64,000 nucleotides of DNA from contig CAWGYD010000001.1 of NCBI GenBank assembly GCA_963826785.1, positions 160,001 to 224,000 of the forward strand. Direction: 5' to 3'. Origin of the DNA: an uncultured delta proteobacterium. GTDB lineage: Bacteria; Desulfobacterota; Desulfobacteria; Desulfobacterales; Desulfosalsimonadaceae. Shown here piece by piece: positions 2,151 to 36,014 of this stretch (its first letter is position 1; each line of letters starts with the position of its first letter). A program made the translations under genes and the position numbers. The notes under the pieces were generated by a model. It made no database searches. It had not been told where the DNA came from and saw only the letters and a program-made list of their open reading frames with translations.

Positions 2151-4175
2151 ATGGCAGAAGAAAAAGAAAAACCGACCAAGGCCGCCAAAGTGGCGGATCC
2201 GGTTGCCGCAACCATAGATGTCGCCTCACAGCAGCTGATCCGGCGTGCCCAGCAGCTGGGCATCGACACGGTATTCGACCGTGCCGAATCCATGAAGCCC
2301 TGCAACATCGGCACCCAGGGAACCTGCTGCAAGAACTGCGCAATGGGCCCCTGCCGGCTGCCCCTGCCCAAGAGCGGCATCGAAGGCGGAGACGACCGCA
2401 AGGGACTTTGCGGCGCAACCGCCAATACCATTGCGGCCAGAAACTTCATCCGCATGATCGCCGGCGGCGCCGCCGCCCACTCCGACCACGGCCGATGCGT
2501 GGCCGAAGTTTTCATGTCGGTTGCACGGAAGGAAACCCAGGACTACAAGATCAAAGATCCGGTCAAACTGGTTGCAGTGGCTGAAGCCATGGGGGTTGCC
2601 ACAAAAGTCGACGTGGATGGCGAATCCAAAGACCGGGATATGGATGAAATCGCTCTGGAGCTTGCAGAAGTGGCCCTGGCCGAATGGGGCAAGCCCGATG
2701 GCGAACTGGTCGGCCTGAAACGAGCGCCTGCGCCGCTGTATGAAAAATGGAAGAAGGCCGGCGTGCTTCCGAGAAACATCGACCGTGAAATCGTTGAAAT
2801 CATGCACCGGACCCACATGGGCGTGGATCAGGATTACAAGAACCTGATGAAGCAGGGGACCCGGGCGGCGCTGGCCGACGGCTGGGGCGGTTCCATGATC
2901 GCCACCGACCTTCAGGACATCGTGTTCGGCACGCCCTATCCGCTGCAGTCGGAAGCCAACCTGGGCATCATGAAGGAAGACCATGTCAACATCATCGTGC
3001 ACGGCCATGAACCGGTCCTGTCCGAGATGATCGTGGCGGCATGCCAGTCCAAGGAAATGCTCGATTATGCAAAGGAAAAAGGCGCCAAGGGGATCCAGCT
3101 GGGCGGCATCTGCTGCACGGCCAATGAAATTCTGCAGCGTCACGGCATTCCGCCGGCAGGAACCTTCCTGCAGCAGGAACTGGCCATCATCACCGGCGCC
3201 TGCGACGCCATGGTGGTCGACATCCAGTGCGTGTTCCAGAACCTGGCCAACGTGGCCAAGTGTTTCCATACCAAGCTGATCACCACCCATCCCATTGCCC
3301 GGATGGAGCAGGACAATGTGCTGCACATCGAATTTGATGAGCACCACGCCATGGATGATGCCAAGCGCATCGTCAAGATGGCCATCGACAATTTCAAGAA
3401 CCGCGGATCGGAGATCATGATCCCGAAGCAGAAGGCGACCCAGATCGCCGGTTTCGGCGTGGAATCCATCCAGTACCACCTGGGCGGAACCTTCCGCGGC
3501 AACTACTACACCTTGAATGACAACATCATCAACGGCCGCATCCGCGGCATCGCCGGCGTGGTGGGCTGCAACAACGCCCGTACCCGCCACAACGAAGGTC
3601 ATATCGCCATCGTCAAGGAGCTGATCAAGAATGACGTCATCGTCCTGACCACGGGATGCAACGGCATCGCCTGCGCCATGGAAGGGCTGCTGACCCCCGA
3701 GTCCGCCGCCGTCTATTGCGGTCCGGGACTGGCCGAAGTCTGTGAAACCGTCGGTATCCCGCCGGTCCTGCACATGGGCTCCTGCGTGGACAACAGCCGC
3801 ATCCTGCTGGCGGCCACCGAGGTGGTCAAGGCCGGCGGACTGGGCAATGACATCAGCGATCTGCCCGCAGCCGGAAGCGCCCCCGAGTGGATGAGTGAAA
3901 AGGCCATCTCCATCGGCCAGTACTTTGTGGCCTCCGGTGTCTACACCGTGTTCGGCACCACGTTCCCCACCACCGGCGCACCGGTATTCCAGGACCATCT
4001 GTTCAAGGATATGGAAAAGATCTACGGCGGCAAATGGGACTTCGAAGCCGATCCCATCCTGCATGCCCGCAAGATGATCGCCCATATCGACGCCAAGAGA
4101 AAAGCCCTGGGCATCGACAAGGCCAGAGAGCGCGTCCTGATGGATATGGCCGATCGCCAGGCACTGGATGCTTAA
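2151..4175 (+). CDS. cooS: Anaerobic Ni,Fe carbon monoxide dehydrogenase catalytic subunit
   Basis: CC..C.MGPC and LCGA (B/D clusters); HGHEP, GICCT, DIQC, VGCNN, TGC, GSCVDN (C-cluster ligands); PEWMSEKA. Start moved to the ATG at 2151 after GAGGAGG. Confidence 0.95.
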   Translation: MAEEKEKPTKAAKVADPVAATIDVASQQLIRRAQQLGIDTVFDRAESMKPCNIGTQGTCCKNCAMGPCRLPLPKSGIEGGDDRKGLCGATANTIAARNFIRMIAGGAAAHSDHGRCVAEVFMSVARKETQDYKIKDPVKLVAVAEAMGVATKVDVDGESKDRDMDEIALELAEVALAEWGKPDGELVGLKRAPAPLYEKWKKAGVLPRNIDREIVEIMHRTHMGVDQDYKNLMKQGTRAALADGWGGSMIATDLQDIVFGTPYPLQSEANLGIMKEDHVNIIVHGHEPVLSEMIVAACQSKEMLDYAKEKGAKGIQLGGICCTANEILQRHGIPPAGTFLQQELAIITGACDAMVVDIQCVFQNLANVAKCFHTKLITTHPIARMEQDNVLHIEFDEHHAMDDAKRIVKMAIDNFKNRGSEIMIPKQKATQIAGFGVESIQYHLGGTFRGNYYTLNDNIINGRIRGIAGVVGCNNARTRHNEGHIAIVKELIKNDVIVLTTGCNGIACAMEGLLTPESAAVYCGPGLAEVCETVGIPPVLHMGSCVDNSRILLAATEVVKAGGLGNDISDLPAAGSAPEWMSEKAISIGQYFVASGVYTVFGTTFPTTGAPVFQDHLFKDMEKIYGGKWDFEADPILHARKMIAHIDAKRKALGIDKARERVLMDMADRQALDA

Positions 4176-19891: not shown

Positions 19892-21085
<1,194 letters not shown>

Positions 21086-29165: not shown

Positions 29166-32100
29166 TTGGAAACATTATATGATTTCTTTATAAAACCGAA
29201 AAACCCACGGTGTTATAAGGGCGTCCAAATTGCGCTGTCGTCTCCGGAAATGATTCGGAGCTGGTCACATGGTGAGATCAAGAAACCTGAGACCATTAAT
29301 TACCGCACCTTTAAACCCGAACGGGACGGCCTGTTCTGCGCCAAGATTTTCGGGCCCACCAAGGATTACGAGTGCAACTGCGGCAAGTACAAACGGATGA
29401 AGCATCGGGGCGTCATCTGCGAAAAATGCGGTGTGGAGGTGATCCAGTCCAAAGTCCGGCGGGAGCGCATGGCCCATATCGATCTGGCCTGCCCGGTATC
29501 TCATATCTGGTTTTTGAAAAGCCTGCCCAGCAAGATCGGAAACCTTTTGGACTTGACCCTGAAGTCCCTTGAAAAGGTGATTTATTTCGACAATTACATC
29601 GTCATCGATCCCAAGGAGACGGGGCTTTCGCCCATGCAGCTGCTGTCCGAGGAAAAATATCGGGAGGCGCGGGAACTCTATGGCGCGAAATTCGAGGCCG
29701 GCATCGGAGCGGAAGCCATCCGCACCCTGATGGAGCGGATCGATATCGAAAAACTCTACAATGAACTGCGGACGGGCATCCAGGAAACCGGATCCGACGC
29801 CAAGCGCAAGAAACTGGCCAAGCGGCTCAAGGTGGTGGATGCATTCCGGCAGTCGGGGTTGAATCCCGTATGGATGGTCCTCGAAGCCATACCGGTGCTC
29901 CCGCCCGAACTGCGGCCGCTGGTGCCGCTGGAAGGCGGCCGGTTCGCGACTTCCGACTTAAACGATCTGTACCGGCGCGTGATCAACCGGAACAACCGGT
30001 TAAAGCGCCTGATGGACCTGAAAGCCCCCGATATCATCGTGCGCAATGAAAAACGGATGCTCCAGGAAGCCGTGGATGTCCTCATCGACAACGGCCGCCA
30101 GGGGCGGGTGGTGACCGGGACCAACAAGCGCCCCCTGAAATCGCTCAGCGAAACCCTGAAAGGCAAGCAGGGACGGTTTCGGCAGAACCTGCTGGGAAAG
30201 CGCGTCGACTACTCCGGACGAAGCGTTATCACCATCGGCCCCAACCTGCGGCTGCATCAATGCGGATTGCCCAAGCAGATGGCCCTTGAGCTGTTCAAAC
30301 CGTTTATTTATCACCGTCTGGAAAAAAAGGGGATCGTCACCAACGTCAAGAGCGCCAAGAAATGGGCCGAGCGCAAGAGTCCCGAGGTCTGGGATACGTT
30401 AGACGAGGTGGTCAAGGAATACCCCATCATGCTCAACCGCGCCCCCACCCTGCACCGGCTGGGTATCCAGGCATTCGAACCGGTGCTGATCGAGGGCAAG
30501 GCCATCCAGCTGCATCCCCTGGTCTGTACGGCATTCAACGCGGACTTCGACGGCGACCAGATGGCGGTGCACATTCCACTGTCTCTGGAAGCCCAGATCG
30601 AGGCCCGGGTGCTCATGCTGGCCTCAAACAACATTCTGTCCCCGGCCAACGGCAGCCCCATTATCGTCCCCACCCAGGACATCGTTCTCGGGCTCTACTA
30701 CATGACCCTGGGGCTGCAGAATGCCCGGGGGGACGGAATGGAATTTTCCGGCCCTGGCGAAGTGCGCTGCGCTTTTGATTCCGGTGCGGTGGATCTCCAT
30801 GCGAAAATCAAAGTCCGCATGGACGGCACCCGGTACGATACCACGGTGGGTCGCATTCTGCTGTGGGAGCTGATTCCCAAAGGCGAAAGCTATATCCTGC
30901 GCCACATCATGGTGCCCGATGAAGAAAAGGCGCATGCGGTGCTCGAAGAGATCGCCGGCGGCGCCTCATTTCGAGACATGGTGCACAAATACTCGGAGGC
31001 GTTTGATAAAACATATACCGGAAACATCGGGCTGCTTGAAAAGGGGGAATTCAAGGAAATATTTCAGCTCAAGGACGCCGAAGCCGGCAAGGTGTTTTCG
31101 CTCAAGCAGGATGAGATCAGCCATATTGTCCGTTCGGGCGGAAAATATCATCTTTTCAAGGTCATCGAGATCCGCAGGGAAATCCCCTTTGTGATGATCA
31201 ACAAGGTGCTCAACAAGAAAGGCCTGAGGGAACTGGTGGACTTCACCTACCGGCACAAGGGCCCCAAGGCCACGGTGGTGCTCTCCGACCAGCTCAAGGA
31301 TATCGGATACCGCCAGTCTACCGCCGGCGGGCTTTCCATCTCCATCGACGCCATGATCATCCCGGAAAGTAAAACGAGCATCTTGACCAAGGCCGAAAAG
31401 GAAGTGTCCGATATCACCAAGCAGTACACGGAAGGTCTCATCACCCAGGGGGAAAAATACAACAAGGTTGTCGACATCTGGGCCAAAGCCACCGATGACA
31501 TCGCCGATGCCATGATGGACGCCATGGAAAAACCCTATGAGGGCGTCCTGGAGAAACTGGCCCCCAGCGAAGACAACCGACTGGTCAAATCGAACGGGGG
31601 CGGGGATATGATCAACCCCATCTTCATGATGGCCGATTCCGGCGCCCGTGGAAGCAAGGACCAGATGCGTCAGCTGGCCGGTATGCGGGGGCTCATGGCC
31701 AAGCCTTCCGGAGAAATCATCGAAACGCCCATCACCGCCAATTTCCGTGAAGGTCTGTCGGTGCTCCAGTACTTCATCTCCACCCACGGGGCCCGCAAGG
31801 GTCTGGCGGATACCGCGCTGAAGACGGCCAACTCCGGGTACCTGACCCGGCGGCTGGCTGACGTGGCACAGGACTGCACGGTCATCGAAGATGACTGCGG
31901 CGTGCGCATGGGACTGGAGATCGAGGCCCTTCTGGAAGGCGGGGAAGTGATTCAGCCGCTGTCCGAGCGCGTACTCGGCCGGGTGGCCCTGGAAAATGTA
32001 TTGGATCCGTTTACGGACGACGTCCTCATCCACGCCGGTGATGAAATTGATGAAGCCGGCGTGAAGAAGATCGATGAGGCGGGCGTCACCTCCGTGCGGA

Positions 32101-33581
32101 TCCGCTCGGTTCTGACCTGCAAGACAGAAAACGGCGTCTGCATCAGCTGCTACGGCCGGGATCTGTCCCATGGCGGACCCGTGGAGATGGGGCAGCCCGT
32201 GGGCATCATGGCCGCTCAGTCCATCGGCGAACCCGGCACCCAGCTGACCATGCGGACCTTCCATATCGGCGGGACCGCCAGCCGCCGCGTGGAACAGGCC
32301 GACATCCGGGCACGCATGGAAGGGACCATCAAGTACAACGTGCTCAACGTGGCCATCAACTCGGATAACCATATCATCGTCATGAACCGGCGGGGCGGTG
32401 AATTTTCCATCGTAAGTGATTCCGGCCGCGAACTTGAGCGCTTCCCGATTATCTATGGTGCCGAGATCATGGTGAACGACGGCCAGAAGGTCAAGCAGGG
32501 CGATCTGCTGGCGACCTGGGACCCTTTCACCACCCCCATCATCACGGCGGTTTCCGGAAAGATCAAATTCGGCGACCTGGTCATTGGGAAGACATTGAAG
32601 GAAAAGGTCGATCCGGTCACCGGCAAATCGAGTCTGACGGTCGTCGACGCTACCAAAGCCGGGGATGTGCGTCCGCGTCTTTCCATCAAGGACAAGGAAG
32701 GCAAGACCGCGGTCATTCCAGGTTCGGGGTCTGCCCGGTACACACTGCCCGTGGACACTATCCTGATGGTGGAGGAAAACGACTATGTGAAGGCCGGCGA
32801 TATCATCGGAAAACTGCCCCGGGAAACCACCAAGACAAAGGATATCACCGGCGGTCTGCCCCGGGTCGCGGAGCTGTTCGAAGTCCGCAAACCCAAGGAA
32901 ACGGCTGTTTTATCTGAAATTGACGGGTACGTCTCCATCGGCAAGACCCCGAAAAAAGGCAAGCAGAAAGTAACGGTCAGCCCGGTGGACGCGGGCGAGA
33001 AGAAGGAATACCTGATCCCCCGCGGCCGGCACATCAACGTGCTGGAAGGCGACTACGTCAAGGCCGGGGAGCAGCTGACCGGCGGCAGCCCCAATCCCCA
33101 GGATATCTTGAACATCAAGGGGGATGTGGCGCTGGCCCGATATCTGCTAAACGGCGTGCAGGAAGTTTACCGGCTCCAGGGCGTACGGATCAACGACAAG
33201 CACATCGAGATCATTATCCGCCAGATGATGCGCCGGGTGAAGATCAAGACCATCGGTGATACGGAATTCATCCCCGAGGAGCAGGTGGACAAGGTGCGCT
33301 TTGAAACCGCCAACCGGGAGATCCTGGCCAAGGGCGGGATACCGGCCACAGGCGAACCGCTGATTCTGGGCATCACCAAGGCCTCTTTGTCAACGGAAAG
33401 CTTCATCTCCGCCGCATCCTTCCAAGAGACCACCAAGGTCCTCACGGATGCCAGCATTTCCGGTGCCTATGACTCGCTTAAAGGTCTCAAGGAAAATGTC
33501 ATCATGGGCCGCCTGATCCCCGCGGGAACGGGCATGGATGAATACAGCAAACCGGATATCGAAGTGGAATCCGGGCATTAA
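29166..33581 (+). CDS. rpoC: DNA-directed RNA polymerase beta-prime subunit, carrying an internal parvulin-like domain insertion
   Basis: TTG start; N-terminal Zn ribbon, NADFDGDQM active site, bridge helix, trigger loop with SI3-type insertion; extra ~99 aa at residues ~574-672. Confidence 0.98.
30885..31181 (+). other. In-frame PpiC/parvulin-type peptidyl-prolyl isomerase domain inserted in RpoC
   Basis: [99 protein letters not shown] follows the rotamase pattern HILV...A..L..I..GA.F..LA..YS...G.LG...F.L..GEIS..V.S..GYH..KV. Confidence 0.85.
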
Positions 33582-34730: not shown

Positions 34731-34820
34731 ATAACTTAAATACTCAAAGTCATCAACCATACGGTCCGTTAGACACAATGCGCAATATGAAATTTGCCAA
34801 TCGACCGGGAGGAGCAGAAA

Positions 34821-36014
<1,194 letters not shown>

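Follow-up and report, generated by a model that had tools for sequence, protein, structure and literature searches.

A parvulin-fold domain inserted into the RNA polymerase β′ subunit across the Desulfobacterales

The large subunits of bacterial RNA polymerase (RNAP) carry lineage-specific inserts (such as β′ i6/SI3, β′ i2, β i4 and β i9, of the SBHM/BBM2 folds, now HABAS/BEAN), known modulators of pausing, of factor binding and of regulation, that are the comparison class for the domain described here: a 99-residue insert in RpoC, the β′ subunit, of an uncultured delta proteobacterium of the order Desulfobacterales. The gene lies in a stretch of 64,000 nucleotides, hereafter the window (assembly GCA_963826785.1, contig CAWGYD010000001.1, positions 160,001 to 224,000 of the forward strand). 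In the accessible parts of PMC2939025 and PMC11515920, lineage-specific inserts appear as discrete domains placed in a surface loop of a large subunit, confined to one lineage, vertically inherited and variably dispensable, and the RpoC insert resembles them in all these respects. Unlike them, it has a parvulin fold, and not that of a β-sandwich hybrid or a BEAN domain. The accessible text of a 2024 survey assigns the β′ insertion domains to the HABAS, BEAN and sLC groups (PMC11515920), which agrees with the statement, made in a preliminary description of this DNA, that the known RNAP inserts are of the BBM/SBHM type.

As for the fold, the closest systems are the parvulin domains of PrsA, SurA and PpiD, which provide the best sequence and structure matches of the insert and are likewise inserted domains with adjacent termini. 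Those of SurA (P1) and PpiD are often catalytically inactive and serve substrate binding. These proteins are extracytoplasmic foldases, whereas the host of the insert is the cytoplasmic RNAP, with no chaperone NC domain around it. The association of a parvulin fold with a multisubunit RNA polymerase has a parallel in Ess1/Pin1, which act on Pol II's carboxy-terminal domain, or CTD (accessible text of PMC7994582). Unlike the insert, which is covalently part of the polymerase and has no Cys or Asp at the catalytic position, Pin1 and Ess1 are separate enzymes that have Cys113 as well as a phosphate-binding loop and reach the CTD in trans. To our knowledge, bacteria have no RNAP CTD of the Pol II kind. 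The insert is, like Escherichia coli PpiC (Par10), a cytoplasmic parvulin, but PpiC is a free enzyme of 93 aa and a weak match (NCBIfam PpiC model, E 3.1e-4); its pull-down partners include NusG, Rho, SuhB and RpoA (PMC7353009, in its accessible part), which may be taken, by analogy, as a loose precedent for contacts between parvulins and transcription proteins.

The insert, its host gene and its flanks have the following window coordinates:

30885..31181, + strand: parvulin-fold insert, 99 aa, RpoC aa 574-672 (Pfam Rotamase, Rotamase_2 and Rotamase_3; AlphaFold2; Foldseek)
29166..33581, + strand: rpoC, RNAP β′ and host of the insert, 1471 aa (TIGR02386, 1739 bits; Pfam Rpb1 domains 1-5)
30795..30884, + strand: N-terminal flank, β-hairpin and helix of the β′ core, ending at the equivalent of E. 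coli 586 (HMMER against E. coli β′ chains; AlphaFold2)
31182..31271, + strand: C-terminal flank, where conserved region E starts; residue 673 corresponds to E. coli 587 (E. coli chains align from 587)

The insert is a complete, in-frame PpiC-type parvulin domain, cleanly inserted in RpoC. This is what the preliminary description had proposed from the same letters (residues 574-672 read identically), and the Pfam search that it suggested bore it out, since the insert alone exceeds the curated cut-offs of all three rotamase families: Rotamase (PF00639; E 3.1e-9, 38.1 bits, cut-off 21.7), Rotamase_3 (PF13616; 33.3 bits, cut-off 22.5) and Rotamase_2 (PF13145; 33.5 bits, cut-off 27). Among all PDB sequences, the top HMMER match was the PrsA parvulin domain 6xd8_A (E 1.7e-9), followed by further PrsA, PpiC, Par14, SurA and Ess1 chains, and the best NCBIfam model was also PrsA (1.6e-12), ahead of PpiC (3.1e-4), SurA (9.1e-4) and a PpiD-length model (4.5e-3). 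An AlphaFold2 (AF2) model of residues 544-702, built on an 87-row alignment (mean pLDDT 91.7, pTM 0.78), places one helix on either side of the insert and folds the insert itself as a parvulin, i.e., a four-stranded sheet wrapped by helices with the termini adjacent. Used as a Foldseek query against the PDB, this model gave 76 matches at E ≤ 0.001, and those listed are all parvulin-family peptidylprolyl isomerases (PPIases) or PrsA/SurA-type chaperones (PrsA, PpiC-type, SurA, Pin1, Par14 and PpiD), with TMt 0.85 and rmsd 2.3 over 100 columns for 6xd8_A, and TMt 0.84 and rmsd 2.2 for 1zk6. The insert region gave rotamase matches only in Pfam, and nothing of the SBHM/BBM2 (HABAS/BEAN) folds; the SBHM-like matches of RpoC (Biotin_lipoyl_2, RPOC_hybrid and Peptidase_M23) fall at aa 1100-1307, away from the insert. 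The earlier statement that the insertion shows no intein termini also stands: the junction residues are not intein-like (Glu first, Arg-Glu last, then Ile), and the Pfam matches at E ≤ 1 include no intein or Hint family. The junctions contain no repeats.

Both flanks align without gaps to E. coli β′ (HMMER), with the insertion point at E. coli 586/587 and residue 673 equivalent to E. coli 587, so that they are contiguous in canonical β′, as the preliminary description had stated. The N-terminal flank comprises, in the AF2 model, two strands (4-9 and 12-17) and a helix (18-26, all in P0001 numbering). The model of the cyanobacterial γ subunit (rpoC1) covers RpoC residues 15-555 and that of rpoC2 (rpoC2_cyan) starts at residues 674-677, and residues 3-10 of the solved cyanobacterial β′2 chains 8syi_Z, 8h3v_B and 8gzg_Z pair with RpoC 677-678. 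Because these models and N-termini map there, the insert site coincides, within ~5 residues, with the point at which the β′ of cyanobacteria and plastids is split into rpoC1 and rpoC2 products; there the chain is cut in that loop, whereas here it is continuous with a domain spliced in. The secondary-channel rim helices lie ~60 residues downstream of the insert in the E. coli alignment. In the accessible texts, the rpoC1/rpoC2 junction is placed before conserved region E (PMC10895346), and the cyanobacterial split is described as lying in an RNAP surface loop between two helices, where a six-residue artificial linker is tolerated (PMC10120043). The coincidence with this split supports the location that the preliminary description had suggested, a surface loop N-terminal to the rim helices, and together with the tolerated linker it marks the site as permissive. 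Of the seven β′ locations named in the accessible text of PMC11515920, none obviously corresponds to this site ahead of region E.

The residues that line the groove of a parvulin are found at these positions, and the counts given for them refer to 87 aligned homologues of the insert:

30903..30905, + strand: His580, first His of the parvulin dual-His motif (H in 86/87)
30999..31007, + strand: Ala612-Phe613-Asp614, with Ala612 at the catalytic Cys/Asp position (alignment of 87; HMMER against PrsA)
31020..31064, + strand: Gly619-x-Ile621-Gly622 strand, with Phe629 and Phe633 of the hydrophobic proline pocket (alignment of 87)
31149..31151, + strand: His662, second His of the dual-His motif (H in 86/87)

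Both His residues are thus retained, as had been noticed on first reading, and so are the glycines of the central strand (87/87 and 86/87) and the proline-pocket positions (Ile/Leu/Val/Met in 81/87, Phe in 80/87, and Phe or Tyr in 84/87). The catalytic position of active parvulins is a Cys or an Asp (Pin1 C113, Par14 D74), and the C113A substitution reportedly lowers the activity of Pin1 ~100-fold. The insert has Ala612 there, which pairs with the Asp of PrsA in the HMMER alignment, so the Ala that had been placed by eye at this site was placed correctly; the homologues have Ala (40), Ser (36), Gly (8), Asp (2) or Glu (1), that is, Ala, Ser or Gly in 84/87. In the own genome, Cys or Asp is found at that position in the canonical parvulins, one of 380 aa that starts like a signal peptide and another of 630 aa, PpiD-like and with a membrane helix at its N-terminus. 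Two residues past the catalytic position, Asp614 is an Asp in 81/87, and the hydrogen-bond network's Ser/Thr position varies (Ala 29, Ser 28 and Thr 8 of 87). The dual His, present in the canonical inserts, is lost in some divergent families that retain a full-size domain: G067 lacks both His, G012 the second and G027 the first. The rotamase signals of four divergent inserts are weak (E 2e-3, 0.14, 6.7e-6 and 7e-3), and that of G067 is still modelled as a parvulin (pLDDT 82.6; TMt 0.74 with 6xd8_A), in a model that leans on the canonical inserts of its alignment. A further deviation was seen in the RpoC of Desulfococcaceae bacterium HSG8 (L071:601-1164), which has ~29 extra residues in the 159-aa region, made up of an extended hairpin ahead of the insert and, within the parvulin, a stretch rich in Ser and Arg, and in which the second His is not clearly kept.

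The insert is spread over the order and confined to it as far as the phylum was sampled. Residues 545-705, used as query in a word-indexed search, retrieved 120 proteins at E ≤ 1e-3, 102 of which (the window's own included) span 77-100% of the query and are mostly RpoCs of ~1456-1531 aa, along with some shorter, incomplete protein calls; in the remaining 18, RpoCs no longer than 1386 aa, only the flanks align (MAFFT). With the 99-aa insert as query, 254 of the 301 sampled Desulfobacterales genomes match at E ≤ 1e-5 (191/221 high-quality genomes; 131/156 genera), and none of the 194 sampled genomes from other orders of the phylum has an insert match in a frame of rpoC size, the 43 matches outside the order being ordinary stand-alone parvulins in frames of 287-653 aa. 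The comparison across Desulfobacterota that the preliminary description had recommended therefore yields an order-wide insert; a class-level scan returned genomes of the same order only, and the limits of the distribution rest on the phylum scan. Among the insert matches listed, 139/150 are in open frames of at least 1400 aa, 10 in frames of 681-1208 aa (in two of which, G222 and G083, rpoC is merely cut by contig ends) and one in a 370-aa frame, and no listed match has a stop codon inside the insert. Ten of the 47 order genomes with no match were re-tested with a 435-aa RpoC query: six have a full-size divergent insert (frames of 1460-1563 aa), one (G020) has no insert, one (G045) has a remnant of ~27 residues at the insert site that is not a parvulin, and two gave no rpoC match. 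The carriers are named as Desulfobacterales, Desulfobacteraceae, Desulfosalsimonadaceae, Desulfococcus, Desulfonema limicola and Desulfatibacillum, and a cultured isolate, Desulfosarcina cetonica JCM 12296, has the insert as well.

In a FastTree (LG) phylogeny of 103 RpoC sequences from which the insert columns had been removed, the insert-bearing RpoCs form a single clade with support 1.0, and a 1371-aa form of RpoC (P0105 and P0107-P0109) is nested several nodes inside it (node supports 1.0, 0.975, 0.868, 0.844, 0.892 and 0.909, with three intervening nodes weak). One gain followed by a later deletion explains this arrangement, because the insert clade is single and the 1371-aa form lies within it, and the G045 remnant, being of another kind, is a second and independent reduction. 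The same position in one clade, its absence from sister clades and flanks collinear with insert-free RpoCs are what is expected of a lineage-specific RNAP insertion. Taken together, these data show that an ancestor of the Desulfobacterales captured the domain of a PrsA/SurA-like chaperone parvulin into rpoC, and the parvulin identity of the insert and this evolutionary history are, as a joint claim, close to certain.

In one assembly (G329:C288, L018, positions 3385-3387), a single in-frame TAG stands in the conserved rpoC flank just upstream of the insert, where other RpoCs have Glu, and divides rpoC into open reading frames (ORFs) of 567 and 914 aa, with no obvious ribosome-binding site before the next ATG; this is probably an error of the metagenome-assembled genome (MAG) or a point nonsense mutation. 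Four protein clusters of 846-890 aa (P0038, P0039, P0040 and P0055) start inside the insert, the remainder of each being C-terminal RpoC sequence. Their contigs measure 23-36 kb, so that contig ends do not cut them, and three of the clusters are named “peptidylprolyl isomerase [Desulfobacterales bacterium]” by NCBI. The insert explains such labels, which annotation pipelines sometimes give to rpoC fragments. There are also insert-bearing contigs labelled “uncultured Nitrospinaceae bacterium”, “Gammaproteobacteria bacterium” and “Oceanipulchritudo sp.” (L037, L067; P0025), more likely mis-binned or mislabelled MAG contigs than cases of horizontal transfer.

The insert measures 97-101 aa in the 87 homologues. 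Its dN/dS, a measure that had been proposed at the outset, was by Nei-Gojobori 0.07-0.09 in three within-genus pairs, as compared with 0.036-0.064 for the flanks (1000 codons), values that are rough since dS (0.9-2.0) is near saturation; in a fourth such pair the insert had reached saturation. The comparison of homologues shows the domain to be maintained, as the low ratios indicate, under purifying selection and at near-constant length in almost the whole order. Mean column conservation is 0.55 in the insert and ~0.77 in the flanks. On average the insert is strongly acidic, with net charges that run from -16 to +2 around a mean of -8.6 (-3 in this genome), and its GC content at third codon positions (GC3) is 64.6%, against 76.4% for the rest of rpoC.

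How could such a domain serve the polymerase? We tentatively favour, as a reading somewhat short of an even chance, that it is a parvulin-fold module, tethered to the polymerase, that binds peptides and whose isomerase activity is weak or nil. The captured domain lies in the loop at the surface immediately ahead of conserved region E, at E. coli β′ 586/587, and would form an acidic module on the RNAP face that holds the pore-1 and funnel (secondary-channel) domains. Its groove, with the two His, the hydrophobic proline pocket and the conserved Asp614, would hold a segment with proline, which could belong to RNAP itself or to a protein associated with it. Isomerase activity would be weak or absent because Ala, Ser or Gly replaces the catalytic Cys/Asp, and the role would be modulatory rather than essential, since some lineages have lost or degraded the domain. 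The preliminary description had raised a binding module as an alternative to an active isomerase, and the residues of the groove point the same way, in that a binding module seems likelier than an enzyme because both His are kept while the Cys/Asp is lost. The G067 insert, modelled as a parvulin without either His, suggests that catalysis may not be required for retention, and an order-wide domain that has been lost twice and is degenerate in some families argues against an indispensable catalytic role. A complex prediction of the insert with β′ 430-573, β′ 673-905 and omega returned no interface (score 0.00, mark 0.32) and speaks neither for nor against a given docking on the core.

Several observations weigh against a peptide-binding module. 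The domain is dispensable in at least two lineages, given that G020 and P0105/P0107-P0109 keep only ~9 residues at the site and G045 ~27, and it is degenerate in several families. It accumulates nonsynonymous changes faster than its surroundings (dN 2 to 2.5 times that of the flanks), and the closest pair of sequences gave a dN/dS of 0.65 for the insert against 0.139, a value that comes from very few changes. Moreover, the stability of the fold also depends on the conserved His and Phe residues, whose conservation alone is therefore not proof of a working groove, and Asp614 (81/87) could substitute for the lost catalytic Asp, which would favour an enzyme.

That last possibility leads to a true prolyl isomerase tethered to RNAP, with Asp614 standing in for the Cys/Asp, which would act in cis in the manner of Ess1/Pin1 on prolines of Gre, DksA, NusG, σ, RNAP itself or the nascent peptides of coupled ribosomes. 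The dual His (86/87 each), the pocket (Phe in 80/87, Phe or Tyr in 84/87), Asp614 and the rotamase match above the Pfam cut-off are all compatible with it, and free E. coli PpiC pulls down transcription proteins (PMC7353009, accessible part); against it stand the Ala, Ser or Gly of 84/87 homologues at the catalytic position, the variable Ser/Thr position (Ala 29, Ser 28, Thr 8) within the hydrogen-bond network, the families that keep the domain without one or both His and the two natural losses, and we consider it unlikely. The more specific proposal of a working cis-acting prolyl isomerase or holdase at the secondary-channel face, operating through a relocated catalytic Asp614, is more doubtful still; were it true, the domain could gate the binding or conformation of GreA/DksA-family factors, or act on nascent or ribosomal proteins in coupled transcription-translation, as a built-in bacterial analogue of the control of Pol II by Pin1/Ess1. 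A passenger or structural buttress, i.e., a compact domain with neighbouring termini that came to lie in the most permissive of the β′ loops, without a ligand of its own and persisting since its removal mildly harms folding or assembly, is possible but on balance improbable. The rapid evolution of the insert (about twice that of the flanks, with conservation 0.55 vs 0.77 and the dN ratio mentioned above), its lower GC3, the two independent losses with several degenerate families and the natural split and tolerated linker at the cyanobacterial site (PMC10120043, accessible text) would all suit a passenger. It would explain less well why 97-101 aa are kept across the entire order at a dN/dS of ~0.08, and why conservation is concentrated at the canonical groove positions and not evenly spread. 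An artefact, be it chimeric assembly, intein or mobile element in rpoC, has next to no chance of being right: it is refuted by the conservation of the insert across genomes, with hundreds of independent assemblies, one isolate genome included, carrying the same insert at an identical codon position, and the frame is open, with neither a Hint/intein match nor junction repeats. The public reads add nothing to the evidence from other genomes: in the junction check proposed in the preliminary description, a single 197-nt contig (31127-31323) crosses the 3′ junction, with no differences, and nothing crosses the 5′ junction; the DNA read sets were two, with small shares (0.18 and 0.13), and no RNA set was listed.

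The origin of the domain can be narrowed to a PrsA/SurA-like parvulin, with no donor pinned down beyond that in the own genome, the phylum scan or the representative protein library. In the latter (1.84 billion proteins), the five best short matches examined were all RpoC fragments and four long matches were multi-parvulin SurA-like proteins or an unrelated repeat protein; the best stand-alone relatives are at most ~40% identical. Another parvulin of the own genome deserves mention, a SurA-like gene located directly downstream of mfd, which encodes the transcription-repair coupling factor (L002, contig C7 of G000, 1363-2112, - strand). Among the own-genome parvulins, which share no more than 27-31% identity with the insert, it matches best (E 5.2e-5, 28% identity). 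It has neither His, has a Ser-Glu-Ala-Phe motif at the Cys/Asp site in common with the RpoC insert, and its frame does not include the N-terminus or signal peptide.

Two accessory ideas found no support. A free small parvulin that compensates for insert loss was not apparent, as G020, G102 and G045 have the same frames of 259-645 aa as the carriers G134 and G049, the sole extra of G045 relative to these two being one interrupted frame of 92 aa, and the Pfam rotamase model, run on these five genomes of the order, found no intact frame below 259 aa. A trade-off with Gre/DksA like that of cyanobacteria is equally unsupported, since the genome has GreA and three DksA/TraR-type zinc-finger proteins, together with omega. 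The genes for GreA (155 aa) and omega (rpoZ, 76 aa) were located at 1705-2172 and 1450-1680, both on the - strand, of contig C9 of G000 (L081), with greA 25 nt upstream of rpoZ on the same strand, and they may form one operon.

In a full-text literature search judged by abstracts, with Lane & Darst 2010 outside its reach, no published description of a parvulin insert in RpoC was found. That work is reportedly the standard catalogue of RNAP inserts, and the position of the insert may already be numbered in it, with no fold assigned. The words parvulin, PPIase, rotamase, prolyl and PpiC do not occur in the accessible text of PMC11515920 or in its one searched supplement. Rotamase Pfam matches are already precomputed on many of these RpoC database entries. 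The insert is a lineage-specific RNAP insert whose fold class is new for such inserts; those surveyed to date all fall into two β-rich groups of folds, and a foldase fold within the catalytic subunit would add a new class to them. It has become fixed in a large, ecologically important order of sulfate reducers, cultured strains included, and with one gain and few losses it provides a clean molecular marker for the Desulfobacterales.

The surroundings of rpoC in the window follow the canonical order tuf-secE-nusG-rplK-rplA-rplJ-rplL-rpoB-rpoC-rpsL-rpsG-tuf-rpsJ. Two genes for the elongation factor EF-Tu are present (19892-21085 and 34794-36014), the second directly after rpsG, with no fusA (EF-G) between rpsG and this tuf. 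Opposite rpoB and rpoC there are long antisense ORFs of up to 468 aa, e.g., 30966-32372 (- strand), with no sign of being genes; the opposite strand of highly biased coding sequence commonly gives rise to such frames.

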